Assembly: GCA_018064365.1 (NCBI GenBank)
Contig: JAGHVJ010000019.1
Coordinates: 1-46,369, forward strand
DNA length: 46,369 bases
Direction of reading: 5' to 3'
DNA from: Candidatus Enterousia onthequi
Lineage (GTDB): Bacteria; Pseudomonadota; Alphaproteobacteria; Rs-D84
The notes beneath the pieces are model-generated. The model made no database searches and was not told where the DNA came from. It was given only the letters and a program-made list of their open reading frames with translations. Positions within the stretch are counted from its first letter, which is position 1. Every line of letters starts with the position of its first letter. The position numbers and the translations under genes are program-made. This document shows positions 16,688-38,077 of the stretch, one piece after another.

Positions 16688-16703
16688 ATTTTAAGGATTT
16701 GTG

Positions 16704-17108
16704 ATGCCAAGAAGAACAAGACGTTTTGATGCAGGAATATCGCTGACACCGATGATTGATATTATGACGACATTGTTGGCGGTGTTTATGGTGACGACCC
16801 CAATGATGACGGCTGGTATTGATTTAGAGTTGCCACGTGCAGGACATTCATCTATGACGGGTAATGATCATGCGATTCAGATTAGTGTGGATAGTGCTGG
16901 TCGATATTATTTGGCGCGCGACCAAATGAATTTGGATGATGTTGTGCGTCGTGCGGCGGCCATGCGGACAGAAAATCCTAATTTAACTATTATGATTAGC
17001 GGTGATGCGCGGGCTGATTATGGGGCGGTTATGCGTGCCATGGGACGGTTAAAGGATGCTGGATTTCAAAAGGTTGGATTAAAAACGCAAATTGATAATA
17101 GAAACTAA
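16704..17108 (+). CDS. tolR: TolR (ExbD/TolR family)
   Basis: ISLTPMIDIMTTLLAVFMV with the conserved Asp in the TM helix, plus a periplasmic domain. ATG 16704 has the RBS AAGGA. Confidence 0.85.
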   Translation: MPRRTRRFDAGISLTPMIDIMTTLLAVFMVTTPMMTAGIDLELPRAGHSSMTGNDHAIQISVDSAGRYYLARDQMNLDDVVRRAAAMRTENPNLTIMISGDARADYGAVMRAMGRLKDAGFQKVGLKTQIDNRN

Positions 17109-17863
17109 TGAAAAATCGTGCCAAACAATTTTATTCAGAAAATATTTTAATGTCTGTGATGGGGCATTTGGTGTTGATTGCGTTTATGATAACGTCTGTT
17201 GTGATATTTGTTGAACGCGCAGAAACGGTCGTGCCGGACCGTATTCAAATTATGGAAATTGATTTAAGTAATGTGAAAATTACTGGAAATGAAACTAAAT
17301 TGTATAATACGGATATTCCAAATGTAAAAACACCTGAAACACAAAAAAACAAAACTGATTCTGCATCTGTTCCGGAACATGTTGCCGCTGAAAAAGATAA
17401 AATCACGGATTCGCTTATCGATAATGATGACAACAAAAAAACGCAGAAATTGGCGGAAACAGATAAAAGAACAGATGTGTCTGAAATAAATGCGCCAAAA
17501 AAGAAAACTGTGGTGCGCGTAAATCGCGAAGTGTTATCACTGGACAGAACAATGACTGTTTCTGTGATTGACGCGCTGCGCGTGGCGATGACGCGTTGTT
17601 GGGTAATTGATAGCAGTCGTCCCGATTTATCAGATATTCGTGCGGTTGCGCATTTGAAGATGCGTCCCAACGGAACTGTTGCAGATGTTTGGTTTGAAAG
17701 TGCGGCGCGTGCCGAAACAGATGCAACATTTGCATATGTGTTGAATACAATTCGCGCGGCAATACAAACGTGTGAACCTTTGTCTATGCTGCCACGCAAT
17801 GAATATAATGCGTGGAAAGATATACAATTGACATTTTATCCTACGTCTGGGCGTGTTATGTAG
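17108..17863 (+). CDS. tolA: TolA-like cell envelope integrity protein
   Basis: Position after tolR with a 1-nt overlap. It has an N-terminal TM anchor, a K/D/E/T-rich linker and a C-terminal TolA/TonB-like domain (...RCWVIDSSRPDLSDIRAVAHLKMRPNGTV...). Confidence 0.65.
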   Translation: MKNRAKQFYSENILMSVMGHLVLIAFMITSVVIFVERAETVVPDRIQIMEIDLSNVKITGNETKLYNTDIPNVKTPETQKNKTDSASVPEHVAAEKDKITDSLIDNDDNKKTQKLAETDKRTDVSEINAPKKKTVVRVNREVLSLDRTMTVSVIDALRVAMTRCWVIDSSRPDLSDIRAVAHLKMRPNGTVADVWFESAARAETDATFAYVLNTIRAAIQTCEPLSMLPRNEYNAWKDIQLTFYPTSGRVM

Positions 17864-20900: not shown

Positions 20901-23285
20901 TATTATAATGCAAATGGAACCAGTGCCAAAAATTGGGATAAAACCGCAAATACAACACTGTATGCACGTTGGACTGCAAAAACATATACAGTATCATTTA
21001 ATGCCAATGGGGGAACAGGTGGACAAACAGCAGATGTAACCGCGACATATGGGGCGGCAATGCCGACATTGGGGGCAAACTCGGCTCCGACACGTACAGG
21101 ATATTATCTTGTTGGATGGTATGATAAAAGTGATTATACCGCCAGTGGTGCAATGCAGTATTATAATGCAAATGGTACAAGTGCGCACAATTGGGATAAA
21201 ACCGCAAATACTACATTATATGCAGGATGGGATGGGATAAAGTATATGATAACTTTGGATGACGAGGCTAATGGCGGAACCAGTGGTTCTGGTAGTGTAA
21301 TACAAAAATATGCGTCAAGATGGACGACGAATGACAATGCCCAGACAACGATAACAAGTGTGAATATACCCAAAAGAACAAACAGTATATTTAATGGGTA
21401 TTATAGTGCAAAAACAAATGGCACTCAGCATATCCCTGCCACTGGTGTTTTACCAGCCAACACAACATTTACAGACGATACGACATTGTATGCGCAATTT
21501 AGCAGTTGCCAATGTTCTGCGGGAACGGGGGTAGATACGTGCACAACAAGTTCTACGACTTCTAATACATGTACGGCAACCGCAACGTGTAAAGTGGGTT
21601 ATGAAGAACCGGTTGCGTCATGTACTGGGGCGAATTGTACAAGTAGTTGTACACCGCAAAAGTATACGATATCAATAAAACCTAATGGTGGAAAAATAAA
21701 TGATTCTGTGAATAATTTCGAGTTTTATGAGTTATATAATACGGAATTTAGAGATTTGACCGGTACCAATGTCCTGACGGATATTCCGGTTGCTGTGCGT
21801 GATGGATATAGTTTGACAGGATATTTTACAGCAAGCACTGGCGGCACACTTAAGATTGGGTCAGACGGACTGTTGCCGGTACCATCGACTTTTATGGGGG
21901 ATACAACACTGTATGCCCAGTGGGCGCAAGATGTTATTACTTGTACAGCTGGAAACTATTTGCCGGCGAATTCCACATCGTGCGCCACATGTCCAGCCGG
22001 ATATTATTGTCCAAACACAGGCAATTATGTACAATCTTCATCAAACCAGGGAATTGTTTCTTGTGCGTCTGGAAAAATCACAGAAACGGCTGGGTCAACC
22101 AGTGCGTCGCAGTGTAAAAGTCCTGAGTTTAGCATGACGACAACATCGCTTGCGGCAGGGACTGTGTTTTCATTTACTATGTCTGCCCAGGGTAATTTTG
22201 TGATTGATTGGGGCGATGGTAATATTCAACAAATAACCCGTACAAATACAACCGACACTACATATTCGCACACATATACAACCGCCGGGACATATACCAT
22301 CGGCCTGTCTGGTCAGGCAACGGGATATAATACCAATACAGCGATCGCAGCGATTAGTTTTAGCGGTAATACAAATATTGCAGGGATATCTGGTTCTCTG
22401 GGTGCGGTATTTGGAACATTGTCGTCTGGTACAAACAAACAACCAAGATTTTATCAAACATTTGCTAACTGTAGTAATTTAACAGGTTCAATTCCATCAG
22501 GTTTGTTTAGTGGAATATCTGGTGCACCAGTTAATCAGTTGTTTGCTTACACGTTTGCTGATTGTAGTGGTTTAACAGGTTCAATCCCAGAAAATTTATT
22601 CAGTGGTGTATCTGGGCCATTAACTAATTATTTGTTCACTGGTACGTTTATGGGATGTAGCGGTTTAACCGGATTTGTACCACAAAATTTATTTGATGGT
22701 TTTACAAAAACAAGTGCTTCTGCCCCGATGTATCATGTGTTTAATGGTACTGGACTTGCCACAGCATGTCCAGCGGGATATTATCAATATATAACTGGGT
22801 TCGAGGCTGATTTTAACAGCAAAGTGGCGTGTACACCATGTCCGACTGGATATACATCTGGTGTTGGGGCAACAGCGAACACAGGGTGTTATTTAACGGT
22901 AGATGGTGGTCAGGTAAGAGACGGAACATCGGGAACAACATTATCAACCTGTGCAGCAGGAACATATAAAACATCGCACAATGAATATTATGGAACAAGT
23001 TATAGTTGTGATACATGTCCGACGACTAATCCGTACAGTCCCGCAGGGGCGGCGGATGCTGGGGCGTGTGGACGCAAGTTGCATATTGGGGATAATGTGA
23101 TGTATTTGCGTTCTACACAAAAGACAACACCTTCGTTAAAGTTCGATTTTAACAAGGATGGTGTGGCTGATTTGTTCGGAAATATGTCAACAAGTTCGAA
23201 AAAAATGTCCAGCGGTGTGGATAAATCTTTTAAAGTCAATTATGGTGGTCAAGTGTATTACATACACGATGATACTGTGCAATAA
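17976..23285 (+). CDS. Giant mosaic secreted/surface protein (1769 aa) combining Cys-rich N-terminus, Listeria/Bacteroides (InlB B-repeat/Flg_new-type) repeats, a nested jelly-roll-like domain, a PKD-like signature, BspA-like LRRs and ephrin-receptor/VSP-like Cys modules
   Basis: TTG start preceded by the RBS GAAGGTAGGA, with signal peptide MKTLFRIFNVMFFSAALVFAVVPMAFA. It contains repeated YTVSFNANGGTGGQ...APTRTGYTF.GWY...TLYA.W units. Other signatures are IDWGDG...YSHTYTTAGTYTI, FANCSNLTGSIPSGLFSG / FADCSGLTGSIPENLFSG / FMGCSGLTGFVPQNLF, and CATCPAGYYCP / CTPCPTGY. Confidence 0.9.
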   Translation: MKTLFRIFNVMFFSAALVFAVVPMAFAAGSCPGSFFDYENKEWIQDYTCEDVGQNLIGEGFDHNVLTDGCSCMCDPFDAAFNPVAANACIKGEIDACADVCIPLDLPCDYGQRPYVVDGIAQCGYYFDPEFGLIDYYGSQRWREFLDVNGMSAGYMSPTGELLPCDGDGVKEAGDGTGRCVCADGGWFLMDGGVCVQELPVDLMLDPEGTQNYANLKLDFWHNPFNLANEGYGLPDGGAGLTLDQIMDMVNGQGTQMFDHHGEWTYTPMGTGTQYIYKSIPLVGYPVYSGTSAPVVVKVNLDFQGGNSSWSEFYYVYGRTTPGPFFNSSSVQTPINNSVINKPTRTGYTFGGYYTSTNGNGQQYVDENGVISNNLVYYTSTTPLTLYAKWTPNTYTISYNLNSGTHGASHPTSATYDTSFTVSNPTRSGYTFSGWKITGMDSVTHTYGNSTTASNSISSTTATTFKNLRSTSGTVTFTAQWTQNIPTCYQIHFDNATNGGSGGTTDIWLYRNSSNLSDSKNCKIYSDSACTNVITSITPPTKLNGFYIGQYSVTGVNAESPYNEGWFDTGGGSHIAEDRNYCNNTTNTSGYFNDLDYTYGFQGNQSPAITLRALFECTPGYYNNSDNRCLANTVVLDWQESGGNSIPDGSCTYGGNLVLPSAPSRSGYTFTGWRLADGTMANAGTTITGGCVVGYTNAYNGTSAAITAQWSQGTYTVSFNANGGTGGQSANVSATYGSAMPTISTTAPTRTGYTFDGWYDSVSLPSGYKKLEYIAKNNASQYIQTDYVGNLNSRYEGAVLLTNNTDAYDIASRVNASGNTRNIAFACSGSTSYIGYGTYISAATNRHQCVLNDRMDFVTDYLNRQWSVSIGNSTSTKQMSSDAITSFTNTAPLQIFFNRVAGATSTASYAAPIGTRIYYLKIYENNNLVHHFVPAKRSSDNAIGVYDVVENEFLTNAIANTGSFTAGPETNLEVKYYNANGTSAKNWDKTANTTLYARWTAKTYTVSFNANGGTGGQTADVTATYGAAMPTLGANSAPTRTGYYLVGWYDKSDYTASGAMQYYNANGTSAHNWDKTANTTLYAGWDGIKYMITLDDEANGGTSGSGSVIQKYASRWTTNDNAQTTITSVNIPKRTNSIFNGYYSAKTNGTQHIPATGVLPANTTFTDDTTLYAQFSSCQCSAGTGVDTCTTSSTTSNTCTATATCKVGYEEPVASCTGANCTSSCTPQKYTISIKPNGGKINDSVNNFEFYELYNTEFRDLTGTNVLTDIPVAVRDGYSLTGYFTASTGGTLKIGSDGLLPVPSTFMGDTTLYAQWAQDVITCTAGNYLPANSTSCATCPAGYYCPNTGNYVQSSSNQGIVSCASGKITETAGSTSASQCKSPEFSMTTTSLAAGTVFSFTMSAQGNFVIDWGDGNIQQITRTNTTDTTYSHTYTTAGTYTIGLSGQATGYNTNTAIAAISFSGNTNIAGISGSLGAVFGTLSSGTNKQPRFYQTFANCSNLTGSIPSGLFSGISGAPVNQLFAYTFADCSGLTGSIPENLFSGVSGPLTNYLFTGTFMGCSGLTGFVPQNLFDGFTKTSASAPMYHVFNGTGLATACPAGYYQYITGFEADFNSKVACTPCPTGYTSGVGATANTGCYLTVDGGQVRDGTSGTTLSTCAAGTYKTSHNEYYGTSYSCDTCPTTNPYSPAGAADAGACGRKLHIGDNVMYLRSTQKTTPSLKFDFNKDGVADLFGNMSTSSKKMSSGVDKSFKVNYGGQVYYIHDDTVQ

Positions 23286-26757: not shown

Positions 26758-29700
26758 ATGGCGGGTTTTGTTCATCTTCATGTGCATTCAAAAATTTCTG
26801 TGGGTGCCAGTACTTTATCTATTGCGGCTAATAAAAAGGCCGGAATATTGGCTGGCATCCCAGAATTATGCATTGCTGATGGTATGACGGCATGTGCGCT
26901 GACAGATACAAATATGATGTCTGGATGCGCAGAATTGTCGGATGTTATGCCTGCAAATAAATTACAACCAATAATCGGTATTGAGATTTCTTTGAATCAA
27001 CATACCGCAGATCCAAAAGTTTTACGCGATTCTGCGTTGTCCAAGATTGTTTTATTGGCACAAAATCACGATGGGTATTTGAATTTGTGCGAATTGACTC
27101 GCATTATGTATATGCGACCGGACAATCATCATTTGGGACCATATATTACTTTTGAAGATTTGGAACCATTATCTAGGAATTTAATCTGTTTATCTGGGGC
27201 ACATTTGGGGCCGATTGGGATGGCTGTGTTGAATGCACAAAATTCCACAGCGGATACATATGCTAAAAGATTGCAATCTATATTCGGCGACAGATTTTAT
27301 ATCGAAATTCAACGTCATGGTTTAGAAGATGAAATAAAAACCGAACCTGAATTTTTGCGTATTGCCCAAGATTTTAATATACCTATTGTCGCGACAAACA
27401 ATGTTTGTTTTGCAGCACCTGAAAATTACGAGGCGACCGATGCGTTGGGATGTGTGTTGGGACAAACCAAGGTTATCGACCCAAACCGTTTGCGCGAATC
27501 TTCGGAACAGTATTTTAAGTCAACTGCTGAAATGACAGAATTGTTTAGCGATTTGCCCGAAGCGATTGAAAACACTGAAATAATTGCGTCCAGATGTGGA
27601 TTCTTGGTAAACGTTCATGAAAAACCTTTGTTGCCAAAATTTGGTGATGATTTTGATACCGAGTGTCAGATGTTGCGCGACAACACGATGAACGGGTTAA
27701 AGGCACGAATTGAAGAACACGGCATTACCGATACCCAGCCATACTATGACCAGGCTGAATTTGAGTTAAATGTTATTATTGGTATGGGATTTCCGGGATA
27801 TTTTTTAATCGTTGCTGATTATATTCAATGGTGTCGCGATAATGATATTTTAACGGGGCCTGGGCGTGGTTCGGGTGCAGGTTCTATTGTGGCGTGGTGT
27901 TTGGGCATTACCCATGTTGACCCATTAAAGTATGGTTTGTTGTTTGAAAGATTTTTGAATCCTGACCGTATTTCTATGCCTGATTTTGATGTTGATTTTG
28001 AACCGACCGGAATTGAGCGGGTGTTGGCATATATTTGCGATAAATATGGGCATGATTCTGTGTGTCGCATTATTACATTTGGCAGTTTACAAGCACGTGG
28101 CGCAATTCGTGATATTGGACGCGTTTATGGGATTCCTTACTCTAAATCAGACAGATTGTCTAAACTGATTCCGGCAGATGCAAAAAAATTAAAAGACGCA
28201 GTGGATTCTTCGTCTGAAATGCAGGCGGTGTTGGCGGCAGACGCTGATATGGACAAGGTTGTAAAGGTTGCCGAAGAATTAGAAGGCGCCATTCGAAATC
28301 TGGGTCAACACGCATGCGGTGTTGTTATTGGCGACCGCCCAACGACACAAATTGCACCGGTATATCGCGACCCGTCTAACCCGTTACCGTCCAGTCAATA
28401 CGATGGACATTATTTAGAGGCTACGGGGTTAATCAAATTTGACTTTTTGGGTTTGGAAACATTGGTTGTATTAAAGCATGCTGTAAAGTTGATTCAACAA
28501 ACGCGCGGAGTAAATGTTGATTTAGATAAAATTCCAACCGATGACGATGTGACTATGAAATTATGGCAACGCGGTTTGACCGAAGGCATATTCCAATTCG
28601 ATGCTCCGTTTGTTAAACAGACATTGCGTAAAATGCAACCAACCAGTTTCTTGGAAATTTCGGCATTAAATGCTTTGAATCGTCCTGGGCCTATTGCGTT
28701 TATTCCACAATTTATTGCACGTATGCACGGCGAAGAAAAAATTGAATACGTGCACCCCAAGGCAGAACCGATATTAAAAGAATCTTATGGAATTATCGTT
28801 TATCAAGAACAGGTTATGTTGTTGACACGCGCATTGGCAAACTTTACACGCGGTGAATCTGATACTGTGCGTAAAGCCATGGGTAAAAAGAAATTGGATT
28901 TGTTGGCTAAATTAGAAGTTAAATTCTTGGACGGTTGTGAAGAGCAAGGAACATTGGACCGTGAAACAGCAAAAGATTTGTGGGAAAAATTTAAAGAGTT
29001 TGCAAAATATGCATTTAACAAATCACACGCGATTGCTTATTCTATTGTTGCAAACCAATGTGCATATTTAAAAGCCCATTATACCCCGGAATTTATTGCC
29101 GCAGCAATGTCCAGTAATTTAAATGATACAGACCAGTTATCTTTGTTTGTTGATGATGCAAAATCTAATTTTGGAATTCAAATTGTTGCACCCGATATAA
29201 ACGAAAGCGAATCTTTGTTTTCTGTGCGCGATGGTAAAATTGTTTATGCGTTGGCGGCTATCAAGGGTGTTGGTGTGGTGGCAACAGATGCAATTATTGC
29301 TGAACGACGTGCAAATGGAAAATTTAAAAATTTAACTGATTTTGCAAAACGTTGCGCGCCAATTATGAACAAAAGAATTTTAGAAGCATTCGCGCGTGTT
29401 GGTGTATTAGATTCTTTGGAGAAAAATCGTGCAGCAATATTTATGAACGCAGATATGATTTTGTCTTATGCGTCCAAAAGTAAAGGTAATGGAAATTCTT
29501 TATCTCTGTTTGCAAATACAACCCAAGACGATGTTATGGAAAACCGTTTGCAATCTAATTTGCCCAAAACTGAACCTTGGACATTTGCACAAAGATTAGA
29601 AAATGAATTGGCCGCATTGGGATTTTATATTTCTGCACACCCATTGGACCAATATAAAAATTTAATTGCACGCGAAAAATTGACAACCAGTGCTTCTTTG

Positions 29701-30192
29701 GAAACAGTTGGGGACAGAAAACCGGTGCGTATTGCCGCAAATGTCGGTGCTTTTTCACGACGCAGAACAAAAACCGGCAAAGAAATGATTACGATTGCTG
29801 CAACAGACAGCTTTGGCAATATTGATGCGGTTGCGTTCGGTGATGCATCGTTAGAGTTCGCAAACATTTTATCCAAAGAATCTTTGGTTTTGATATCTGG
29901 TAAATCGTCAAATCGCGACGACCGTGTGTCTGTATTTGTTGATTCTATAACACCGTTGTCTGTATGGGTTGCAAAAATTGCAAAGAAAATTACTTTGGAT
30001 GTATGGAACGGCGATGTGTTGCCAGATTTGAAAAAAACTTTGTCTGGCCTGCCCCGTGGTGTAACACGTGTTGTGTTGAATCTGCACGGTGTGGACAAGA
30101 TTGCGACAATGGCTTTGCCGGGAGGTGTTGAACTGGGTGAACACACGGCTTCTGATTTAACAGCATTGGGGGTCAAGGTACAAATAGAATGA
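26758..30192 (+). CDS. dnaE: DNA polymerase III alpha subunit
   Basis: N-terminal PHP domain (FVHLHVHS), GFPGYFLIVADYIQW, PGRGSGAGSIVAWCLGIT, PDFDVDF, an OB-fold tail and a length of 1144 aa. Confidence 0.97.
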   Translation: MAGFVHLHVHSKISVGASTLSIAANKKAGILAGIPELCIADGMTACALTDTNMMSGCAELSDVMPANKLQPIIGIEISLNQHTADPKVLRDSALSKIVLLAQNHDGYLNLCELTRIMYMRPDNHHLGPYITFEDLEPLSRNLICLSGAHLGPIGMAVLNAQNSTADTYAKRLQSIFGDRFYIEIQRHGLEDEIKTEPEFLRIAQDFNIPIVATNNVCFAAPENYEATDALGCVLGQTKVIDPNRLRESSEQYFKSTAEMTELFSDLPEAIENTEIIASRCGFLVNVHEKPLLPKFGDDFDTECQMLRDNTMNGLKARIEEHGITDTQPYYDQAEFELNVIIGMGFPGYFLIVADYIQWCRDNDILTGPGRGSGAGSIVAWCLGITHVDPLKYGLLFERFLNPDRISMPDFDVDFEPTGIERVLAYICDKYGHDSVCRIITFGSLQARGAIRDIGRVYGIPYSKSDRLSKLIPADAKKLKDAVDSSSEMQAVLAADADMDKVVKVAEELEGAIRNLGQHACGVVIGDRPTTQIAPVYRDPSNPLPSSQYDGHYLEATGLIKFDFLGLETLVVLKHAVKLIQQTRGVNVDLDKIPTDDDVTMKLWQRGLTEGIFQFDAPFVKQTLRKMQPTSFLEISALNALNRPGPIAFIPQFIARMHGEEKIEYVHPKAEPILKESYGIIVYQEQVMLLTRALANFTRGESDTVRKAMGKKKLDLLAKLEVKFLDGCEEQGTLDRETAKDLWEKFKEFAKYAFNKSHAIAYSIVANQCAYLKAHYTPEFIAAAMSSNLNDTDQLSLFVDDAKSNFGIQIVAPDINESESLFSVRDGKIVYALAAIKGVGVVATDAIIAERRANGKFKNLTDFAKRCAPIMNKRILEAFARVGVLDSLEKNRAAIFMNADMILSYASKSKGNGNSLSLFANTTQDDVMENRLQSNLPKTEPWTFAQRLENELAALGFYISAHPLDQYKNLIAREKLTTSASLETVGDRKPVRIAANVGAFSRRRTKTGKEMITIAATDSFGNIDAVAFGDASLEFANILSKESLVLISGKSSNRDDRVSVFVDSITPLSVWVAKIAKKITLDVWNGDVLPDLKKTLSGLPRGVTRVVLNLHGVDKIATMALPGGVELGEHTASDLTALGVKVQIE

Positions 30193-31037
30193 TAAAACAC
30201 ATTCCTGTTCTTTTAAATTCTGTTATGCGCGAATTGGGCGACATTCGCGGGTATCGTATTTTGGATGCAACATTTGGCGCGGGTGGATATACTCGTGCTT
30301 TCTTGGAGGCGGGTGCATCTGTTGTTGCGTTTGACCGCGACCCACATGTTGTTGCGGATGCAAATGAAATCGCAGATGAATTTGGTGACAGATTTCGTTT
30401 TATTGCTGCGCCTTTTTCCAAAATGTCTGAACTGGACGAAAAATTTGATGCGATTGTTTTTGATTTAGGAATTTCTTCTATGCAAATTGATGTTCCCGAA
30501 CGTGGCTTTTCTTTTCGTGGGGACGCACCGTTGGATATGCGTATGTCTGGTGTTGGCGTGGGGGCTGCGGATTTAATAGAACAATCAACAGAATCAGAAC
30601 TGGCTAAAATATTGCGTGAATATGGTGATTTATCCCGTGCGGGGGCGATTGCACGCGCGATAATAAAAAACAAACCAAAAACAACATTTGAATTAAAAAA
30701 TTTAATTTACAATCCGCGTGATGTAGCACCTGTATTCCAGGCTTTGCGTATTGCGGTAAACGATGAAATGGGCGAAGTCCGTCGCGCATTAGAGGCGGTG
30801 CCAAAATTATTAAATGTCGGCGGTAAATGTCTGGTTGTGACATTTCATTCATTAGAAGATAGAATTGTAAAAAATACTTTTCGTGATTGGACAACCGTAC
30901 CAGGAAATCCGTTGATTCCGACAACAACACCGGCACCGTTTCAATTGTTGCGTGCGGTTGTGTCAGATACGGCGGAAATAGAGGCAAATCCTCGGGCGCG
31001 TTCTGCGCATTTGCGTGGGGTACAAAAATCATATTGA
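30189..31037 (+). CDS. rsmH: 16S rRNA (cytosine1402-N4)-methyltransferase RsmH/MraW
   Basis: HIPVLLNSV..., DATFGAGGYTRAFLE, FDLGISSMQID and ERGFSF motifs. Its start overlaps the dnaE stop (ATGA). Confidence 0.93.
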   Translation: MIKHIPVLLNSVMRELGDIRGYRILDATFGAGGYTRAFLEAGASVVAFDRDPHVVADANEIADEFGDRFRFIAAPFSKMSELDEKFDAIVFDLGISSMQIDVPERGFSFRGDAPLDMRMSGVGVGAADLIEQSTESELAKILREYGDLSRAGAIARAIIKNKPKTTFELKNLIYNPRDVAPVFQALRIAVNDEMGEVRRALEAVPKLLNVGGKCLVVTFHSLEDRIVKNTFRDWTTVPGNPLIPTTTPAPFQLLRAVVSDTAEIEANPRARSAHLRGVQKSY

Positions 31038-31086
31038 CCAAGGCGTGCAATTTAATGTAATCTAGGCAAAAAAAGGACAAGGAAAG

Positions 31087-31578
31087 ATGAAAAAATTATT
31101 AGCGTTTGTATTTGGTATATTTGGCGCAACAAATGTGTTTGCCAATCCTGCTTGTGCGGTTTGCACGGTGGCAATTGGCGCGACATTGACAATTTCGCGC
31201 AAATTGGGCGTATGCGACAATGCGGTTGCTGTTTGGTTGGGTGCGTTTTTGGTTATATTGGGATATTGGGCAATAAAATGGTTCGACAATCGCAATTGGC
31301 ACTTTTTTGGTCGTAATGCGGTTTTGATGTTATTATCTTTTTCTACGATTGGAACATTGTATATAAGCCAGTTAAAATACCAGCCGTGTTATTGGATAAT
31401 CGACGCGTTTTTACTGTGGGCAATAGTTGGCGGTGTGGTATATGTGTTATCGCAAAAGTTATACGAATTTATGAAACAAAAAAATAATAATCATGCACAC
31501 TTTCCTTTTGAAAAGGTTGTGATGGCGCTCGGTATGTTATTTATCACCAGTTTCATAGTTTCAAAATTTGCAATGTAA
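31087..31578 (+). CDS. Hypothetical polytopic membrane protein with a CAVC motif after the first hydrophobic segment
   Basis: RBS AAGGAAAG. The sequence MKKLLAFVFGIFGATNVFANPACAVCTVAIGA is followed by three to four hydrophobic helices. Function unknown. Confidence 0.7.
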   Translation: MKKLLAFVFGIFGATNVFANPACAVCTVAIGATLTISRKLGVCDNAVAVWLGAFLVILGYWAIKWFDNRNWHFFGRNAVLMLLSFSTIGTLYISQLKYQPCYWIIDAFLLWAIVGGVVYVLSQKLYEFMKQKNNNHAHFPFEKVVMALGMLFITSFIVSKFAM

Positions 31579-31598
31579 ATAAAAAGAAAGGAAATGAT

Positions 31599-32213
31599 AT
31601 GAAAAAAGATATGAAAAAATTGACTATGCAGGAAATGATTGAAAAAGTTGACGCTGCAAAGAAAGCCAACCCGTTAGATTTGTCTTCGGACCAAGATTTA
31701 TCTATCGCTCTGATGAATTTGATTTCATTAGAAGAACATTTCTTTTTCAGTGGTGCAAAAACTCAAAAGACCGGTTTTTATGATTTGTTGAATACCGTTC
31801 GTTCTATGCGTAAAGAATTGATGGAACGTATTGTCGATAAATCTTCGGTCGAAGGTGGCGAAGTATGGTGCATTTCAAAACATTTGTTGGCGGCTTCTAT
31901 GCGTTTGATGGAGGTTGGAACCAAGGCATTGGGTGCTGGAAACAAGAAAGATGCGACCCAAATGTTTGAAAAAGCATATGATTTATATTCTTTGTTTTGG
32001 GGATTAAATATGCACCTAATTGATTTGGATGGTGTGCATGAATCTGTGCCGGCATTTTATGATGGTGCGGTCGCGGCGTGCAAAATGGATACACCAAAAA
32101 AATCAGCCAAAGAAAAATCTGTTGCAGCTGCGAATAATACCGATGGCGAAAAGTCAACAGTTAAACGTTTGGGTCAATGGGTTAAAAAGGCGGTAAATTG
32201 TTGCATTGAATAA
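31599..32213 (+). CDS. Hypothetical soluble helical protein (204 aa) ending in ...KKAVNCCIE
   Basis: RBS AAAGGAAA. A conserved-looking core reads LISLEEHFFFSGAKT...GEVWCISKHLLAASMRLMEVG...YDLYSLFWGLN. Function unknown. Confidence 0.7.
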   Translation: MKKDMKKLTMQEMIEKVDAAKKANPLDLSSDQDLSIALMNLISLEEHFFFSGAKTQKTGFYDLLNTVRSMRKELMERIVDKSSVEGGEVWCISKHLLAASMRLMEVGTKALGAGNKKDATQMFEKAYDLYSLFWGLNMHLIDLDGVHESVPAFYDGAVAACKMDTPKKSAKEKSVAAANNTDGEKSTVKRLGQWVKKAVNCCIE

Positions 32214-32267
32214 AAGGTGTTGATTTGTTTTTTTGAAAAATGATATAATACCATCAAGAGAGAATAA

Positions 32268-34658
32268 ATGATTAAACATTTGAGATATATTTTATGTGGA
32301 TTGTTGGCGGTTGGAATGACCGCAGCTGGTGCGTTTGCGACAAATACTGGAACTTCGCGCGCAGCTGTATCAGAACGCGCACGTGTATCTGGTATGACAG
32401 CAACGCGTAATGCAAAACAACCGGTGGTTTCAAAACGTAGCACCGCAACACGTTCGGGGCATACTGTTGCAAAACGCGCGTCTGTTTCACCGAATCGTGT
32501 GGCAACGACCGCATCTTCTATTTCTCGGGTTGGTAATATTATCGGCAGTGCGGGCAACGCAGTGGTTCGTCGTGCGTTGGGTTTGTCACGTAATGCAACA
32601 TCTGGTTCTGTGGTACGCGTGGCAACGACACATGGCAATACTGCGCGTTCGGCTGCGAAAATGGGTGGTGCGTCGCGTGCGCGTGCAACTGCGGTATTTT
32701 CAGATGTGTCTAAATTGGGCGACGGTTATAATCAATGTCGTGATGCATATAATACCTGTATGGACCAGTTTTGCGCAGGTGCAAATGAAACGTATCGCAG
32801 ATGTTATTGCAGTAATACTTTTCGTGATTTCCGCGACCGTGAAGATGCTTTGGATGCGGCAACAACATTATTGGCACAGTTTGAAAACAATAATTTAAAT
32901 GCTGTAAACAAAACCGCCGAGGAAGTTAATGCAATGTATTCTGCAACCGAAGGCGAAATGGCGATAAAAACTGACACATCTGGGGCGGCTGCATTATTGA
33001 ACGATATTGGCGACTTGCTGTCTGGCAAGAAAAAAGCAACATCAGTTCCGCAAAACAACATGATGTCGATGAACGGTTTATCTATTGACTTTTCTGGTGA
33101 TTTAGATGACATATGGGGTGCCAGTTCTTCTGCATCATTGTTTAGCACAGAATCTTCTGCGAGTGATTTATCCACGATGGAGGGTGCAGAATTATATAAC
33201 AACGCACACACACAATGTATGCAATTGGTTGGTTCTGTGTGTGATGCCGGCGCGGTTCGTAATATGGCAAAGAGTGCATACAGCATTTTAATTACCCAAG
33301 ATTGTAATGCGTATCAAAAGAAAATAGATGCCAAGACCGAACAGGTAAAAACAACTGTGCGCACGGCGGAAAAATACCTGCGCGAGGCAAGATTGGAAGA
33401 ATACCGCGCACATAATTCTGCGGATGTGAACGAATGTTTAGACAAGGTAGAAAAGGCAATGTTGGCACCAACTGCGTGTGATGCAGATTATGTAAAATGC
33501 TTGGATTATTCTGGTGTATATATCAATTCTACATCTGGCGAACCGATTTATTCCCCACGTTTGTTTAAATTGAATGAATTGATTACATTGGATGGCGTGT
33601 CGGCGGATGTTTTGGTACAAAATCCAGAATTTAATCAATTTTTGGATTCCAAACGCATGTATGCGCAAACAGCATTAGATTCTTGTCGTGGTATAGCGGA
33701 TACGGTTTGGTCTGAATTCAAACGCAATGCATTGATTAAAATTTCCCAGGCACAAGATGAAAAAATCGAAGAAGTCAAAATGTCTTGTGTTTCTACGATG
33801 AAGGAATGTTATGATGCAACAAGCGGACAGTTGAAAAGTTTTGACGACACAACGGCGCAATCATCTGGGGCATTGGCGGCGCGTGCGTCACGCGACATGT
33901 GTTCCGACAAGGTTTTGGCGTGTGCGGCATTATATGGCGATACAGACGGGTGTGTTATTGATGTAAAAACAAACAAAGTGACCACAACCTCTGGTAAAAG
34001 TTGCGGTTTAACATCGTTGATGAATTTTGTTGATACGGTTGACGATGTTCGTATTGCCGAGGGGTGTGCCACCGCGGTTCAGAATTATTTAAAAGATTTA
34101 TGTACCCCAACAAGCGGAGAAGAAGGCTATCCATGGAATTGTAGATTAATGAATTTTGGCGATTTAAATAGCATAACATGGGTTAACAAAAGTAACGCGA
34201 CCACTTTGGTAGATAAAGTTGTAAATTTTGCTTTTGATACTTGTGGATTGCAGAATGGTGAAACACGTGTTCAAAATGAGGTGTTGGGAGAGTTGTCAGG
34301 CATAATGGAAATGTTAGAGGGGCAATTGTCTGACAAATGCACAGAATTAGACGGTTATTGGTATGCCAAGACAGCCGTTGTGGGTAATGTAAGTGCTATG
34401 ACACCATTAAAATCTTTTTATTCAACTGTATTTGGAGGACGTGAAACAGATAATGAAAAAAGTATCGGCACGTGTTTTGAAAATACAACCATGGTTCAAT
34501 GTATAGGATATAACGAAGACAACGCAAAAGATGGTGACATGGCACGATATGATGCTGCACGAGACGAATGTGTGTTTACAGATAAATGGTATGAGCAACA
34601 ATGTGGCTTGTTGGGTAGAGGATATTTTGAAAACGGAGTTTGTTATGTTGCACAATAA
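32268..34658 (+). CDS. Secreted Cys-rich protein (796 aa) with a basic R/S/T/A-rich N-terminal low-complexity region
   Basis: Signal peptide MIKHLRYILCGLLAVGMTAAGAFA. About 120 aa of RAAVSERARVS...VAKRASVS...VRVATT... follow, then a long helical region with many paired Cys (YNQCRDAYNTCMDQFCAG...RRCYCS). Confidence 0.8.
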   Translation: MIKHLRYILCGLLAVGMTAAGAFATNTGTSRAAVSERARVSGMTATRNAKQPVVSKRSTATRSGHTVAKRASVSPNRVATTASSISRVGNIIGSAGNAVVRRALGLSRNATSGSVVRVATTHGNTARSAAKMGGASRARATAVFSDVSKLGDGYNQCRDAYNTCMDQFCAGANETYRRCYCSNTFRDFRDREDALDAATTLLAQFENNNLNAVNKTAEEVNAMYSATEGEMAIKTDTSGAAALLNDIGDLLSGKKKATSVPQNNMMSMNGLSIDFSGDLDDIWGASSSASLFSTESSASDLSTMEGAELYNNAHTQCMQLVGSVCDAGAVRNMAKSAYSILITQDCNAYQKKIDAKTEQVKTTVRTAEKYLREARLEEYRAHNSADVNECLDKVEKAMLAPTACDADYVKCLDYSGVYINSTSGEPIYSPRLFKLNELITLDGVSADVLVQNPEFNQFLDSKRMYAQTALDSCRGIADTVWSEFKRNALIKISQAQDEKIEEVKMSCVSTMKECYDATSGQLKSFDDTTAQSSGALAARASRDMCSDKVLACAALYGDTDGCVIDVKTNKVTTTSGKSCGLTSLMNFVDTVDDVRIAEGCATAVQNYLKDLCTPTSGEEGYPWNCRLMNFGDLNSITWVNKSNATTLVDKVVNFAFDTCGLQNGETRVQNEVLGELSGIMEMLEGQLSDKCTELDGYWYAKTAVVGNVSAMTPLKSFYSTVFGGRETDNEKSIGTCFENTTMVQCIGYNEDNAKDGDMARYDAARDECVFTDKWYEQQCGLLGRGYFENGVCYVAQ

Positions 34659-35970
34659 AATAAATACATGTGGTGGTCTTGTAATTTTCTTTGTGGTGTT
34701 TTTCATAAATTCTGTTGGTCATTGTTATGTCAGTGATTCTATAAAGGCAGGATATAATTGGACGTCCAGTTCTTCTAACAATCACTGTAAATCACACGGT
34801 ATTGATGATGCGTGTGTTGGTAATAGTGCGGTATCTGGAGGTGTTTGTACGGGCTGGGGCAATCGTGGAACTTATAGTGACGAGAGAGCAACATTGTTAT
34901 TTATTGCACATCAGGTTAATGCAAATGGAGCAAAATTTTGTTTGACCCAAGTCCAGGGTGCAAATAAGAATAAAAACAAAGGCGTGGCTGGTCCTTGGCT
35001 TACTTATTATGCTGCCGCTGGGAATCAAACAAAATGCTTTTGGTTGTGTAAAGCAGGTTATGGTGGTCCAGAGTGTAATGACCCAGTAGCAGATGGAGCG
35101 GTATGCAATGCTGAAGAAATATCCAGAAACGCTTTTAGTGGGTACAAACTTGCCACTTCTAGTACTATGAATTTAGAAAGTACGGATTGGATGTTTGGTC
35201 GTTGGCAAAATCCTGGCACAAAATGTAATGCGCATGGAGAAAATGAGCACGAGGCTTTCTTGGCTGTTTCTGGATGGCTTCCGAGTGGTCATGGCGCAAA
35301 AGTTGCTCCGATGATGGCGTGGGCTGACCGGAGTGGTTGGGACGACATGGAATCAGCACCAATTATCCATAGGGTGGGCGACCAGTTGTTAATGTGTTCA
35401 CCTGGATACAAACCAAATCCGTCCAATACAGATTGTGAGGTGGTTAATGCTACGACATGTATGTTGCAAAATGGAACTTTTTGTGACGGGTTTTCTCGAG
35501 ATAAATTTGATGAAACTATACACACTATAGATTCAACTTCTGCAGGCAAGTGTTTACGTTATTTTTGTAAAGATTCTAACAAGGCATTCCCATCATCTGG
35601 CGACACATCTTGTGAAGATTGCGCAGTTGGTGTTCGCGGTGGTCCAAATCCAAATAATGGAGTTTGTGTACTGTGTGATTTAGGACAGTATTTTGATTCA
35701 ACTTCTGGTCAATGCAAGTCTGCCTTGGGATTTTCGCGAACTGATTTACAATATGGTGTTGGAAAAACAAACTCTAAATCAGGAAAGGTATCTGATCAGT
35801 GTTGGACAAAGACAACACCGGAAGAATATGCGAATTGTGTAAAAGGTATAACTACATCAACAAGTATTGATTCATCGAACTTGGTACAAAAGTACAACTT
35901 TAATACACTCAAGTTAAAGCCAACGGATGTACAAACAACAAGTAAAACTAAACTTGCACCAAAATTATAA
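34645..35970 (+). CDS. Secreted Cys-rich protein (441 aa) with EGF-like and furin/TNFR-like cysteine spacing
   Basis: I prefer ATG 34645 (RBS ACGGAG), which gives MLHNKINTCGGLVIFFVVFFINSVGHC, a signal peptide; the track start at 34531 would add an N-terminal extension inside the upstream gene. Motifs CFWLCKAGYGGPEC and CEDCAVGVRGG...GVCVLCDLGQYFDSTSGQC. Confidence 0.75.
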   Translation: MLHNKINTCGGLVIFFVVFFINSVGHCYVSDSIKAGYNWTSSSSNNHCKSHGIDDACVGNSAVSGGVCTGWGNRGTYSDERATLLFIAHQVNANGAKFCLTQVQGANKNKNKGVAGPWLTYYAAAGNQTKCFWLCKAGYGGPECNDPVADGAVCNAEEISRNAFSGYKLATSSTMNLESTDWMFGRWQNPGTKCNAHGENEHEAFLAVSGWLPSGHGAKVAPMMAWADRSGWDDMESAPIIHRVGDQLLMCSPGYKPNPSNTDCEVVNATTCMLQNGTFCDGFSRDKFDETIHTIDSTSAGKCLRYFCKDSNKAFPSSGDTSCEDCAVGVRGGPNPNNGVCVLCDLGQYFDSTSGQCKSALGFSRTDLQYGVGKTNSKSGKVSDQCWTKTTPEEYANCVKGITTSTSIDSSNLVQKYNFNTLKLKPTDVQTTSKTKLAPKL

Positions 35971-35976
35971 AAACAC

Positions 35977-35999
35977 ACCGCCATTTCGGCGGTATTTTT
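35977..35999. terminator. Bidirectional terminator (Cys-rich operon / XRE regulator)
   Basis: Hairpin accgcc-atttc-ggcggt followed by attttt. Confidence 0.6.
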
Positions 36000-36028
36000 A
36001 TAAAAAATTATTTTATCCAAATTTATTT

Positions 36029-36487
36029 TTACAATGTGATTGTGCCGTCGGGTTGTTGTTCGGTGACGGACACGCGATCGCCCTGATTTAATGCGGATAA
36101 AATATCCATTACGATAGCGCGCTGTTTATCGGTTGGTAATTTCCAATACAGATTTATCAAACGCAATGTTTCTGTTTTTCCCATTGGGTCGCCTTCGTCC
36201 TGATCAGAAACACGACGCGACTTTGTCGCCTTGGTTTCGTCGGGCAAATTCCCCGGCAATCCACAAAAGAAAAATGATACAGGCGTATCCAATGCACGGC
36301 CAACCTGGAACAATCTGGATGCAGAAATACGGTTTGTCGCAGATTCATATTTCTGAATTTGTTGACACGATACGCCACACAAATCGCCCAAATCTTTCTG
36401 GGATAATCCCAACATACTGCGGCGTAATTGCATACGGTTGCCGATATGTGTATCTACGGTATTATGAACATATTGTTTTCCAGCCAT
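36029..36487 (-). CDS. XRE-family helix-turn-helix transcriptional regulator
   Basis: HTH: IGNRMQLRRSMLGLSQKDLGDLCGVSCQQIQKYESATNRISASRLFQVGRAL. I prefer ATG 36487 (RBS GAAGGAA) over the track start at 36556. Confidence 0.85.
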   Translation of the reverse strand: MAGKQYVHNTVDTHIGNRMQLRRSMLGLSQKDLGDLCGVSCQQIQKYESATNRISASRLFQVGRALDTPVSFFFCGLPGNLPDETKATKSRRVSDQDEGDPMGKTETLRLINLYWKLPTDKQRAIVMDILSALNQGDRVSVTEQQPDGTITL

Positions 36488-36601
36488 AGTTTCCTTCTTT
36501 ACTTGGTTTATATTCTTATTTTTAATCAAGATAATATTTTTTTGTTGGTTTTGCAATAAAAAATACTTATAATGCAGTCCGGAAATATCAAGGAGATTAT
36601 T

Positions 36602-38077
36602 ATGAAAAAACCACTGGTTCTATGCATTATGGATGGGGTCGGAATAAACGTCAATCACGAACATAACGCGGTCGCGTTGGCAAAAATGCCGTTTTTTAAT
36701 TCTTTGTTGGCGAATTATCCACATTCATCTTTGCGTGCAGACGGCGAATTTGTTGGCTTGCCGGCGGGACTGATGGGCAATTCCGAGGTTGGACATATTA
36801 CTATTGGTTCTGGGCGAGTTGTGCGCCAATATTTATTACGGTTTCAACAAGAAAACTGGGATAATAATGCAAAATTGCAGAAATTTATTTCATCTGTGCG
36901 TGAAACACGTGGAATTGTGCATTTTGCAGGTTTAATGTCGTCAGGCTGCGTGCATTCCAGTATAGATGACGAGTTGGTTATTATAAAATATGTTTTGGAT
37001 GCCGGGTTGCGTGTGTGTATTCACTTTGTTGCAGACGGTCGCGATGTACCACCACAATCTGCATCAGAATTTATCGATTTGATTGAACATCGTTTGGCAA
37101 AATATTTTGCAGATTCGCGCGTGTTTTGGGGGACTTTGTCTGGTCGGTATTATACAATGGACCGCAATCACAATATGGACAGAACGAAACTGGCGTTTGA
37201 TGCGATTGCGCATGCAAAATCTGAAATCTCGGCACCCGACATTCGCACAGCATTGAACAATGCATATGCACGGGGCGAAACAGATGAATTTATTAAACCG
37301 ACAATAATTTCTGGTGCGCCGATAACATCGCACGACGGTTTTTTGTGGGGAAATTATCGTTCTGACCGGTCGCGCCAGATTTTGCGTGCGATGATTGATT
37401 CAAATATCGGTGTAAATATTTTATGTTTTTCTCAATATGGCGAGGGGTTAAATGAAACATGCCCTGCACTGATTGAAGACGAAACACATACGAATTGTTT
37501 GGGCGATATTTTGGCGGCTGCCGGCAAAACCCAGTTGCGTATTGCCGAAACAGAAAAATACAATCATGTGACATATTTCTTTGATATGGAAAGTAATGAC
37601 GAACAATTGGGATGCCAGAAAATTTTAATTCCGTCGCCAGATGTTGCCACATTTGATTTGAAGCCTGAAATGTCTGCGGAACAAATAACCGACACTTTGT
37701 TGCAAGAACTGGCGAATTTTGATGTTGTGATTTTGAATTATGCTAATGGCGATATGGTTGGACATACAGGAAATGAACCTGCGGCAATACGTGCCATGGA
37801 ATTCTTGGATACGCAACTGGCGCGTTTAATTCCGGCGGTGTTAGATTTGGGTGGTGCGTTGCTGATTACTGCGGACCATGGTAATTGTGAAGAAATGTGG
37901 GATTATAAAAATAATGCACCATATACTTCGCACACTACGAACCCAGTAAATTTAATTGTTGTAGGTATGGGCGATATCGTCGTTCGTGACGGTGGCTTGT
38001 GCGACATTGCGCCAACAATGTTAAAAATTTTAGGTATTTCGCAACCCGCGGATATGACAGGCAAGTCTTTGATTTAA
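36602..38077 (+). CDS. gpmI: 2,3-bisphosphoglycerate-independent phosphoglycerate mutase
   Basis: LCIMDGVG, NSEVGHITIGSGR and TADHGN motifs. ATG 36602 has the RBS AAGGAG. Confidence 0.93.
   Translation: MKKPLVLCIMDGVGINVNHEHNAVALAKMPFFNSLLANYPHSSLRADGEFVGLPAGLMGNSEVGHITIGSGRVVRQYLLRFQQENWDNNAKLQKFISSVRETRGIVHFAGLMSSGCVHSSIDDELVIIKYVLDAGLRVCIHFVADGRDVPPQSASEFIDLIEHRLAKYFADSRVFWGTLSGRYYTMDRNHNMDRTKLAFDAIAHAKSEISAPDIRTALNNAYARGETDEFIKPTIISGAPITSHDGFLWGNYRSDRSRQILRAMIDSNIGVNILCFSQYGEGLNETCPALIEDETHTNCLGDILAAAGKTQLRIAETEKYNHVTYFFDMESNDEQLGCQKILIPSPDVATFDLKPEMSAEQITDTLLQELANFDVVILNYANGDMVGHTGNEPAAIRAMEFLDTQLARLIPAVLDLGGALLITADHGNCEEMWDYKNNAPYTSHTTNPVNLIVVGMGDIVVRDGGLCDIAPTMLKILGISQPADMTGKSLI

Follow-up and report, generated by a model that had tools for sequence, protein, structure and literature searches.

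The window, i.e., the whole stretch of 46,369 nt that was analyzed, contains a locus of four co-directional genes, designated A to D, that lie between rsmH and a convergent regulatory gene, with the following features.

30189-31037: rsmH, the ORF directly before A
31034-31063, plus strand: promoter-like element 5' of A (TTGACC, 18-nt spacer, TG-TAATCT)
31087-31578, plus strand: gene A, ORF of 163 aa
31599-32213, plus strand: gene B, ORF of 204 aa
32220-32249, plus strand: predicted internal sigma-70 promoter for C(-D) (TTGATT, 18 nt, TGATATAAT, an extended -10)
32268-34658, plus strand: gene C, ORF of 796 aa
34645-35970, plus strand: gene D, 441 aa from the ATG also chosen by the public gene call
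35975-35995, both strands: predicted bidirectional intrinsic terminator (hairpin ACACCGCC-ATTTC-GGCGGTGT, with an A-run before and a T-run after)
36029-36556, minus strand: convergent XRE/HTH_3 regulator (Pfam HTH_3, E = 3e-9; probable start 36487)

Spacings determined from the ORF coordinates were 49 nt between rsmH and A, 20 nt between A and B and 54 nt between B and C, and the ORFs of C and D overlap by 14 nt. The terminator, which scored on both strands, is common to D and the XRE gene. This arrangement of genes, gaps, overlap, terminator and convergent regulator had been described in the original prediction and was confirmed by ORF, hairpin and Pfam analysis. The absence of any motif of a known enzyme or transporter, also noted there, was borne out by searches of Pfam and NCBIfam, in which no family was found for A, B, C or D, and of the PDB, in which none of the four proteins had a match.

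The TTGACC of the element 5' of A overlaps the rsmH stop codon, and the pattern TTGAC(C)-N17/18-TGTAnnAT was retained at the rsmH-A junction of approximately 50 related loci despite divergence of the intergenic sequence. The predicted promoter between B and C, which is followed by an AGAGAGA ribosome-binding site, had the top score among promoter-like sites in the region, and its extended -10 motif was present in the B-C spacer of 43/43 loci that carried C. A terminator at this junction was usually absent from C-carrying loci; an additional hairpin terminator was noted between B and the C promoter in locus L058. Of the four-gene operon originally proposed, the close, co-directional genes were therefore upheld but a single A-B-C-D transcription unit was not, given the conserved promoters before A and between B and C. 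C and D appear to have a promoter of their own, and read-through from the A promoter may also contribute.

Protein A begins with a signal-like segment, which is followed by NPACAVCTVAIGA (residues 20-32) and then by four hydrophobic helices. Signal peptide cleavage was predicted between VFA and N, with the AxA signal-peptidase site preceding the CxxC motif. This motif, CAVC (residues 23-26), opens a hydrophobic helix of 18 residues, after which come four predicted transmembrane (TM) helices. The CxxC was kept in 78/79 aligned sequences (CPVC in 57/79, CAVC in 15/79), the motif reading C-P/A-V-C-T. In the same 79 sequences, conservation of 95% or more was seen at C23, C26, G41, D44, W50, G52, W61, D106, G115, K130 and K143; C23 and C26 were the sole conserved cysteines, the remaining ones being lineage-specific. 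Net charges in a positive-inside analysis were +3.2 for loop 64-76 and +3.9 for loop 124-143, and since both loops are strongly positive they would be cytoplasmic, which places the CxxC on the predicted extracytoplasmic side. None of the 787 homologues of A that were found carried a Pfam domain, and a fold search with the AF2 model (pLDDT 77) returned no PDB match with E < 1. These results agree with the earlier description of A as a signal or anchor segment, a CxxC and TM helices, and the conservation and sidedness of the CxxC, both of which had been singled out as checks on its proposed function, came out in favor of that function.

Protein B was predicted to be all-helical, as had been stated, and its AF2 model was a helical bundle of low confidence (pLDDT 61.5). 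A variable, low-confidence linker (approximately residues 147-186), probably disordered, is followed by a C-terminal helix that ends in CCIE. Each of two homology searches with B gave at least 8000 scored matches, and no Pfam domain was seen among the B matches listed. Over 202 sequences from Alphaproteobacteria and Patescibacteria, 60 positions were at least 97% identical, and the near-invariant residues include E45, E46, H47, E88, C91, H95, E105, C201 and C202, i.e., a set with three cysteines and two histidines that is kept across phyla. B has neither a thioredoxin nor an NAD(P)H-binding fold, and no cofactor-binding motif was recognized in it. B is among the better-conserved proteins of its lineages still without a family assignment, and its conservation is of value whatever chemistry is true.

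The close association of A with B was evident from loci recovered with either protein as bait. Thus, A was immediately upstream of B in 79/82 loci baited with B, and B followed A in 61/66 loci baited independently with A, with a gap of 35 nt or less in 76/77 genome loci and 61/64 metagenome loci. These loci range over gut Alphaproteobacteria (Ca. Enterousia-like) and Patescibacteria. A-B is an ancient, tightly coupled and unannotated two-gene unit that thousands of bacteria with small genomes possess; in Ca. Enterousia (order Rs-D84), the genome is smaller than 1 Mb and respiratory chains are missing (PMC12306168). C adjoined A-B in 43/80 genome loci and D in 25, whereas all loci outside this one clade contained A-B without C or D. 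A suggestion in the original prediction that A-like and B-like genes are neighbors in other uncultivated lineages was therefore correct, Patescibacteria included, and conservation of the neighborhood across phyla was found for A-B but not for C and D. The self-contained A-D module that had been envisaged was not supported.

The usual partner of A-B outside the C-carrying clade is a probable thioredoxin-fold protein, not C or D. A membrane-anchored protein of predicted thioredoxin/glutaredoxin fold was encoded directly upstream of A in 52/67 metagenome loci, and a thioredoxin-fold partner flanked A-B in 11 genome loci, in the order Trx-A-B or A-B-Trx. With approximately 90 aa, the partner amounts to a minimal glutaredoxin-like domain; it has an N-terminal TM anchor, a conserved cis-Pro-type GVPF motif and, in 57/66 sequences, the DsbA-type motif CPHC; the corresponding motif in some Alphaproteobacteria is CGWC or CPYC. 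Matches to glutaredoxin and thioredoxin models were weak and below curated cut-offs, with one at threshold (L066: 23.6 vs 22.9 bits), and one alphaproteobacterial partner gave a weak MauD match (E = 0.006). The gap between A-B and the CPHC partner was often a few nt. Judged from gene order, the commonest form of the unit, in Patescibacteria, is three genes encoding the CPHC protein, A and B. No thioredoxin-fold partner was found in the window or in the locus surroundings at the 43 C-carrying loci.

Proteins C and D had been described as packed with cysteines behind signal peptides, in agreement with totals of 29 and 24 Cys, respectively. In C, the signal peptide precedes a basic, Ser/Thr/Ala/Arg-rich stretch of approximately 130 aa that is poorly conserved, and then a domain with 28 conserved Cys. 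All 28 Cys beyond the signal peptide were kept in 93-100% of 44 homologues, as compared with 45% for other residues, and the family comprises 647 representative clusters. In D, approximately 20 Cys behind the signal peptide were conserved in 25 homologues. Exported proteins with this many conserved cysteines imply that a disulfide pathway is needed.

Taken as a whole, the sequence evidence suggests that A-B probably handles disulfide bonds outside the cytoplasm. With a probability of approximately 0.5, A and B would form the core, in the membrane and the cytoplasm respectively, of a previously undescribed thiol-disulfide oxidoreductase system that acts outside the cytoplasm. The two genes would be translationally coupled and transcribed from their own promoter. 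Cleavage of the signal peptide of A would leave C-P/A-V-C exposed on the outer side of the membrane, at the N-terminal end of the short hydrophobic helix, where disulfides could be exchanged between this pair and either the thioredoxin-fold partner or, without an intermediary, exported proteins, the job of A being that of DsbB, VKOR or MauE toward DsbA. B would dock on the two strongly basic cytoplasmic loops of A and may provide a cofactor, or act as a sink or source of electrons, via an invariant C91/H47/H95/Glu cluster and the C-terminal vicinal Cys-Cys, in replacement of the quinone that these lineages appear to lack. In lineages that lack respiratory chains, the system would be the analogue of DsbB/VKOR, and C and D would be separately promoted, disulfide-rich secreted proteins that are plausible clients. 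A redox function, its oxidative direction and the role of B are what we infer beyond the observed synteny, conservation, charge-bias topology, promoters and lack of known homologues. The thiol-disulfide role first suggested for A fits the almost constant linkage, in Patescibacteria-like loci, to a membrane-anchored CPHC partner, but its dedication to C and D was not supported. Against a redox system, the one Cys pair of A and the cysteines of B are on opposite sides of the membrane with no evident electron path, and neither protein was similar to any redox enzyme in profile and structure searches. The CGWC or CPYC of some alphaproteobacterial partners likewise gives no hint of an oxidase, and the lack of a thioredoxin-fold partner in the window and at the C-carrying loci also speaks against such a system. 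A wider proposal, in which A and B together with the thioredoxin-fold protein constitute a new quinone-independent pathway that makes or relays disulfides across the membrane and is the main oxidative folding pathway of Patescibacteria/CPR and Rs-D84, with B as a new cytoplasmic redox protein that employs a C-terminal vicinal-Cys arm and a site for a metal or cofactor, is put forward as tentative and on balance doubtful.

Patescibacteria, whose genomes are minimal like those of gut Rs-D84, are generally regarded as lacking respiratory chains, and quinone-dependent oxidases are thus unexpected in these bacteria and in Rs-D84. Numerous bacteria that export proteins with disulfide bonds have neither DsbB nor VKOR nor MauE. 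Since A-B is extremely conserved, unannotated and tied to a CPHC protein, it is a specific candidate for this missing machinery, testable by complementation of E. coli dsbB and dsbD mutants. In a 2026 survey, approximately 20% of species lacked DsbB, VKOR and MauE, and its authors concluded that further oxidative-folding pathways are still to be discovered (bioRxiv 10.64898/2026.03.05.709764).

As in the E. coli DsbA-DsbB and the DsbA/MdbA-VKOR systems, the gene of a probable extracytoplasmic thioredoxin-fold protein with CPHC adjoins that of a small, approximately four-helix membrane protein with a hydrophobic CxxC at the outer end of a helix. However, A lacks sequence or fold similarity to DsbB and VKOR, conserves a single Cys pair as opposed to two and has a cleavable signal peptide, while the minimal partner is without the helical insert of DsbA and those systems have nothing that corresponds to the obligatory cytoplasmic B. 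None of 51 members of the A family matched DsbB (PF02600) at E <= 5, the probability from hhalign of the A profile with E. coli DsbB was 0.3%, and C23 and C26 contrast with the two essential periplasmic Cys pairs of DsbB, a CxxC and a second pair in a loop. Nor did the A family have Pfam matches to VKOR (PF07884), in which a CxxC on TM4 and a loop pair take the place of a single Cys pair; to MauE (PF07291), whose CxC and Phe-Gly motif is absent from A; or to CcdA/DsbD (PF02683, PF13386), both Cys of A being on one helix. The acceptor of DsbB, VKOR and MauE is a quinone, whereas hosts of A-B are reported to lack respiratory chains, which argues against a quinone acceptor here, though scavenged quinone may serve. 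The pair MauE-MauD, recently shown to replace DsbB (bioRxiv 10.64898/2026.03.05.709764), also combines a membrane-anchored thioredoxin-like protein with a small membrane protein that has one Cys motif but differs in the CxC motif, the predicted ubiquinone binding of MauE and the lack of a B equivalent.

Cysteines on both sides of the membrane, an outer thioredoxin-fold protein and the logic of a relay from cytoplasm to envelope are shared with CcdA/DsbD and its ResA, CcmG or Etrx partners, and A-B could by analogy be a reducing or isomerizing relay that runs from the Cys-Cys of B through the CxxC of A to the outer thioredoxin-fold protein, which would be kept reduced for repair or isomerization. 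Such a relay would make use of a cytoplasmic B with an invariant C-terminal vicinal Cys-Cys behind its variable linker, a tail reminiscent of the mobile redox arm that mercuric reductase and insect thioredoxin reductase carry at the C-terminus, and would suit the glutaredoxin/DsbC-like CPYC or CGWC of alphaproteobacterial partners. We consider it unlikely in view of the DsbA-type CPHC in 57/66 partners and of the single outer-face Cys pair of A, as opposed to two membrane-core Cys on separate, pseudo-symmetric TM helices. Furthermore, the 51 A-family members were without a Pfam DsbD or DsbD_2 signal, and B is neither a thioredoxin, the source of electrons for CcdA/DsbD, nor of an NAD(P)H-binding fold. 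Also improbable is a role without redox catalysis, A being a small transporter, channel or membrane scaffold in which the CxxC forms a structural disulfide and B a cytoplasmic regulator or Zn-stabilized adaptor. No catalytic motif was recognized in A or B, C91/H95/C201/C202 of B could form a structural zinc site, and two TM helices of A have invariant Asp at the outer end, where transporters often carry Asp. This role would leave unexplained both the recurrent tight linkage to a CPHC thioredoxin-fold protein and the placement of CxxC at a helix N-terminus, the classic redox-active arrangement.

A hand-over of soft metals (Cu, Hg, Zn, Cd) from an outer CxxC through the CxxC of A to the Cys-Cys and Cys/His of B would resemble MerP-MerT-MerA, in which, likewise, one protein with a CxxC lies outside, a membrane protein has Cys in helix 1 and a cytoplasmic protein ends in a mobile vicinal Cys pair. 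The invariant C91, H47, H95, C201 and C202 of B, a tandem ArsR/SmtB metalloregulator flanking A-B in 6 alphaproteobacterial loci and P-type ATPases within a few kb in 3 loci are consistent with this, but such associations are rare, and the ArsR family, of which the regulator in question matches the BigR model (E = 7e-19), also senses sulfur or redox species. With no homology of A, B or the partner to any Mer protein and no MerT, MerP or HMA matches, a partner of probable thioredoxin fold with cis-Pro instead of the ferredoxin-like HMA fold, and a housekeeping level of conservation in the core gene set of minimal genomes that is unusual for metal resistance (Mer genes being on mobile resistance elements), metal transfer seems a poor prospect.

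An oxidoreductase built on A-B accommodates C and D as a lineage-specific addition with its own promoter, possibly clients and not components. It is very improbable, and as a general statement largely refuted, that the four genes make up a self-contained operon and that A-B serves to fold or anchor C and D: the A-B-C order in 43 species-level loci (25 with D), the usual lack of a B-C terminator and the disulfide-rich, exported nature of C and D favor this view, but all these loci share one syntenic block, dnaE-rsmH-A-B-C-(D)-XRE-gpmI, so that the linkage is explicable by descent in one clade, C has its conserved promoter, and A-B is far commoner without C and D. The XRE gene was present in 37 loci of this block and appears from its context to be a conserved neighbor that nothing ties to the A-B system. 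Distant relatives of C were found in unrelated contexts away from A-B, and the window contains further cysteine-rich secreted proteins whose genes are unlinked to A-B.

The four co-directional genes 3' of rsmH, designated A (CxxC membrane protein), B (helical cytoplasmic protein), C and D (Cys-rich secreted proteins), were located from the ORF table together with the following flanking genes and signals.

26758-30192, dnaE
30189-31037, rsmH
31034-31063, promoter of A at the rsmH-A junction (TTGACC-N17/18-TGTAnnAT), conserved in related loci
31087-31578, A, 163 aa
31599-32213, B, 204 aa
32220-32249, promoter of C(-D), among the best-scoring sites
32268-34658, C, 796 aa
34645-35970, D, 441 aa from an ATG that is also the start in the public gene call
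35975-35995, both strands, bidirectional terminator, a G+C-rich hairpin between A and T runs

Spacers of 49, 20 and 54 nt separated rsmH, A, B and C, while C and D overlapped by 14 nt, and a gene with a Pfam match to HTH_3/XRE converged on the hairpin. Signal peptides were present on C and D, which contained 29 and 24 cysteines, and B lacked any hydrophobic segment. The ORF table and scans thus bore out the original prediction with respect to gene order, spacers, overlap, terminator, convergent regulator, CxxC motif, signal peptides and cysteine content. The original prediction also saw no motif of a known enzyme or transporter in the four proteins; Pfam and NCBIfam scans gave no match above threshold for any of them, and PDB sequence and profile searches returned nothing for A, B, C or D. 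An Rfam scan of 30500-36800 revealed no RNA element, and a repeat search nothing notable. The A promoter overlapped the stop codon of rsmH with its -35 element, and in the window (30189-31087) rsmH was followed by A-B and not by the usual division genes ftsL-ftsI. Proteins clustering at 90% identity with those of the window were named 'MAG: Alphaproteobacteria bacterium', and the nearest loci were from Ca. Enterousia and related MAGs from gut or rumen.

The pairing of A with B was evident from two surveys. In the first, a B profile was run against a single genome for each GTDB species, and 80 of at least 570 matching loci were kept. With the window and some additional loci this made 82, of which 79 had an A homologue directly 5' of B; among the loci were those of Patescibacteria (Falkowbacteria, Uhrbacteria and Parcubacteria) and of MAGs labelled gamma- or deltaproteobacterial. 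In the second, performed independently on metagenome contigs with an A profile as bait, B lay directly 3' of A in 61 of the 66 loci with room for it. The A-B spacer was 35 nt or less in 76/77 genome loci (median 18 nt) and in 61/64 metagenome loci (median 4 nt). A-B is therefore an ancient, tightly coupled pair, and the suggestion in the original prediction that such genes are neighbours in other uncultivated lineages was correct. Detectable homologues numbered 787 for A and at least 8000 for B, the latter figure being reached again with a Falkowbacteria sequence as query, and those listed were devoid of Pfam domains. A literature search found neither the A-B pair nor disulfide pathways of Patescibacteria described. 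Three loci (L030, L052 and L001) and one protein (P0102) were labelled Bacteroides fragilis, Muribaculaceae or Lachnospiraceae although the locus was clearly alphaproteobacterial; these contigs were probably mis-binned in the source assemblies.

In the window, A carried NPACAVCTVAIGA after a signal-like segment. Across 79 sequences the CxxC was CPVC in 57 and CAVC in 15, and C23, C26, G41, D44, W50, G52, W61, D106, G115, K130 and K143 were conserved. The CxxC was situated 1-3 residues past an AxA-type signal-peptidase site (one in CPR-type and three in window-type sequences) and opened an 18-residue hydrophobic helix rich in Gly/Ala. Mean net charges of loops 64-76 and 124-143 were +3.2 and +3.9 while the remaining loops were acidic, so that the positive-inside rule predicts a cytoplasmic position for the two basic loops and an outer-face position for the CxxC, D44 and D106. 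The expected helices were present in an AF2 model of A (pLDDT 77), for which Foldseek found no PDB neighbour with E < 1 (best E-value about 1). Comparison of the A profile with E. coli DsbB by hhalign was negative, and none of 51 family members scanned singly against Pfam and NCBIfam scored above threshold; weak recurrent matches to TMD0_ABC and RseC_MucC were taken as noise. A reading of HAHFPFEKVV in A as a metal ligand was dropped because HAH, which was not conserved in Patescibacteria, is not invariant outside Alphaproteobacteria, and a lipoprotein assignment was rejected since the residues ahead of the first Cys were unlike a lipobox. Two types of A occupied the same syntenic slot in the Enterousia-like clade (loci L005-L065), namely a window type (ANPACAVC, 75-81% identical) and a Patescibacteria-like type (AxA-VCPVC, 32-37% identical), as exemplified by L009:6391-6957 versus L007:6485-6976. 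The B beside either type was 67-88% identical, which suggests that A alone was replaced or recombined.

Protein B was highly conserved, with sixty positions at least 97% identical across 202 sequences from Alphaproteobacteria and Patescibacteria; the near-invariant positions included E45, E46, H47, E88, C91, H95, E105 and the terminal C201 and C202. The AF2 model (pLDDT 61.5) was a four- to five-helix bundle joined to a C-terminal helix by a linker that was variable and modelled with low confidence, and had no significant Foldseek match in the PDB (best E-value about 1). Rubrerythrin/Dps-like fold matches were attributed to generic four-helix bundles, and B was not assigned to the ferritin-like di-iron proteins because paired ExxH motifs were missing. 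Scanned singly against Pfam and NCBIfam, 41 family members gave nothing above threshold, and a weak recurrent match to NPR1_interact was regarded as noise.

Outside the Enterousia-like clade the pair usually had another protein as its third partner. This protein of about 120 aa (Trx), anchored in the membrane at its N-terminus and with a domain resembling glutaredoxin/thioredoxin, was encoded directly 5' of A in 52/67 metagenome loci. It also flanked A-B in 11 genome loci, arranged as Trx-A-B (Patescibacteria) or A-B-Trx (some Alphaproteobacteria). Its profile matches were weak (glutaredoxin, thioredoxin and MauD-type), its active site was CPHC in 57 of 66 sequences, and it kept a GVPF motif where the thioredoxin fold has its cis-proline. 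CPHC is also found at the active sites of the oxidases DsbA and MdbA. A tandem ArsR/SmtB regulator adjoined A-B in six alphaproteobacterial loci. In one alphaproteobacterial lineage (L002:7231-12081 and L003), such a regulator was divergent and 5' of an A-B-Trx cluster followed by a 211-aa unknown protein, an IscU-like protein (weak NifU_N match) and a GGGtGRT-family protein. On an Uhrbacteria contig, a 419-aa protein (L074:4080-5339) with no Pfam match combined a signal peptide, a glutaredoxin-like domain with CPHC and, fused to these, a membrane domain of several passes that bore a GFNPCAMW motif, and may represent a second, fused thiol-redox membrane system. Neighbours of a few Patescibacteria-type trios (L084:4784-5377, L084:7541-7954 and L073:9676-11607) were a Cys-rich membrane protein starting MDNCC, an ORF judged by eye to be hemerythrin-like, and a P-type ATPase of the heavy-metal type, an association too rare for interpretation.

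In the favoured reading, to which we assign a probability of roughly 0.5, A-B would be an extracytoplasmic thiol-disulfide system that ancestrally included the CPHC protein. A would then have a membrane role akin to that of DsbB, VKOR or MauE, and B would be a new kind of cytoplasmic partner to it. This reading is consistent with the constant CPHC partner, the placing of the hydrophobic CxxC where a helix ends on the outer side, the tight gene coupling and the biology of the hosts. Genomes of Ca. Enterousia (order Rs-D84) are smaller than 1 Mb and have neither a TCA cycle nor respiratory chains (PMC12306168), so that quinone-dependent oxidases would be left without an acceptor, and undiscovered oxidative-folding pathways are explicitly expected (bioRxiv 10.64898/2026.03.05.709764). 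In function the system resembles DsbA-DsbB, MdbA-VKOR and MauD-MauE, whereas A-B falls outside DsbB, VKOR and MauE by each family criterion examined (homology, number of Cys pairs and type of motif) and B has a counterpart in none of the three systems. Counted against the favoured reading were the lack of a visible electron path from the outer CxxC of A to the cytoplasmic cysteines of B and the absence of the CPHC gene from the A-B locus of the window. Among the rivals, it seems unlikely that A-B acts as a reducing relay, and a non-catalytic complex is comparably improbable; a soft-metal hand-over chain is quite doubtful. The A-B partnership of the original prediction stands, a thiol-disulfide role at the outer face is probable, and the pair offers a specific candidate, open to simple tests, for the disulfide machinery that has been missing in bacteria with minimal genomes.

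The role of C and D was another matter. C adjoined A-B in 43 and D in 25 of 80 genome loci, every such locus was in the conserved block dnaE-rsmH-A-B-C-(D)-XRE-gpmI, and neither gene was found at the A-B loci surveyed outside the Enterousia-like clade. Given this one shared block, common descent in a single clade could account for the linkage. The B-C spacer contained TTGATT-N17/18-TGnTAnAAT followed by AGAGAGA in 43/43 loci, while identity of C among them was only 37-66%, and in one (L058) a hairpin terminator preceded this promoter. Conserved promoters at the rsmH-A junction and in the B-C spacer thus point to two units, P-A-B and P-C-D, with read-through from the former into the latter possible. 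A self-contained four-gene module dedicated to C/D, as originally proposed, is accordingly very improbable, C and D being beside A-B in one clade and having their own conserved promoter.

All 28 cysteines of C beyond the signal peptide were kept in 93-100% of homologues and about 20 were conserved in D; they seem to form structural disulfides. The C family comprised 647 representative clusters without a Pfam domain, and distant homologues scanned against Pfam and NCBIfam gave no match above threshold. Three distant members were found in contexts of other kinds, away from A and B, and in one genome paralogues were clustered. In the region L168:774-9501, which had no A or B, a distant member of 1166 aa was flanked by two C paralogues of weaker similarity, with an autotransporter nearby, so the family can be multi-copy. 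Mature C began with a basic, low-complexity stretch of ~130 residues rich in Ser/Thr/Ala/Arg (window 32340-32720, residues ~25-150), with a column identity of ~0.2 versus 0.5-0.7 for the Cys-rich body. Further Cys-rich secreted proteins were encoded elsewhere in the window. One was a large envelope protein, unlinked to A-B, at 17976-23285 (+), directly 3' of three ORFs (16196-17863) resembling TolQ/TolR/TolA by eye; this secreted protein of 1769 aa had 49 cysteines, and Listeria-Bacteroides repeats (Flg_new, E = 1e-41) occurred in it five times.
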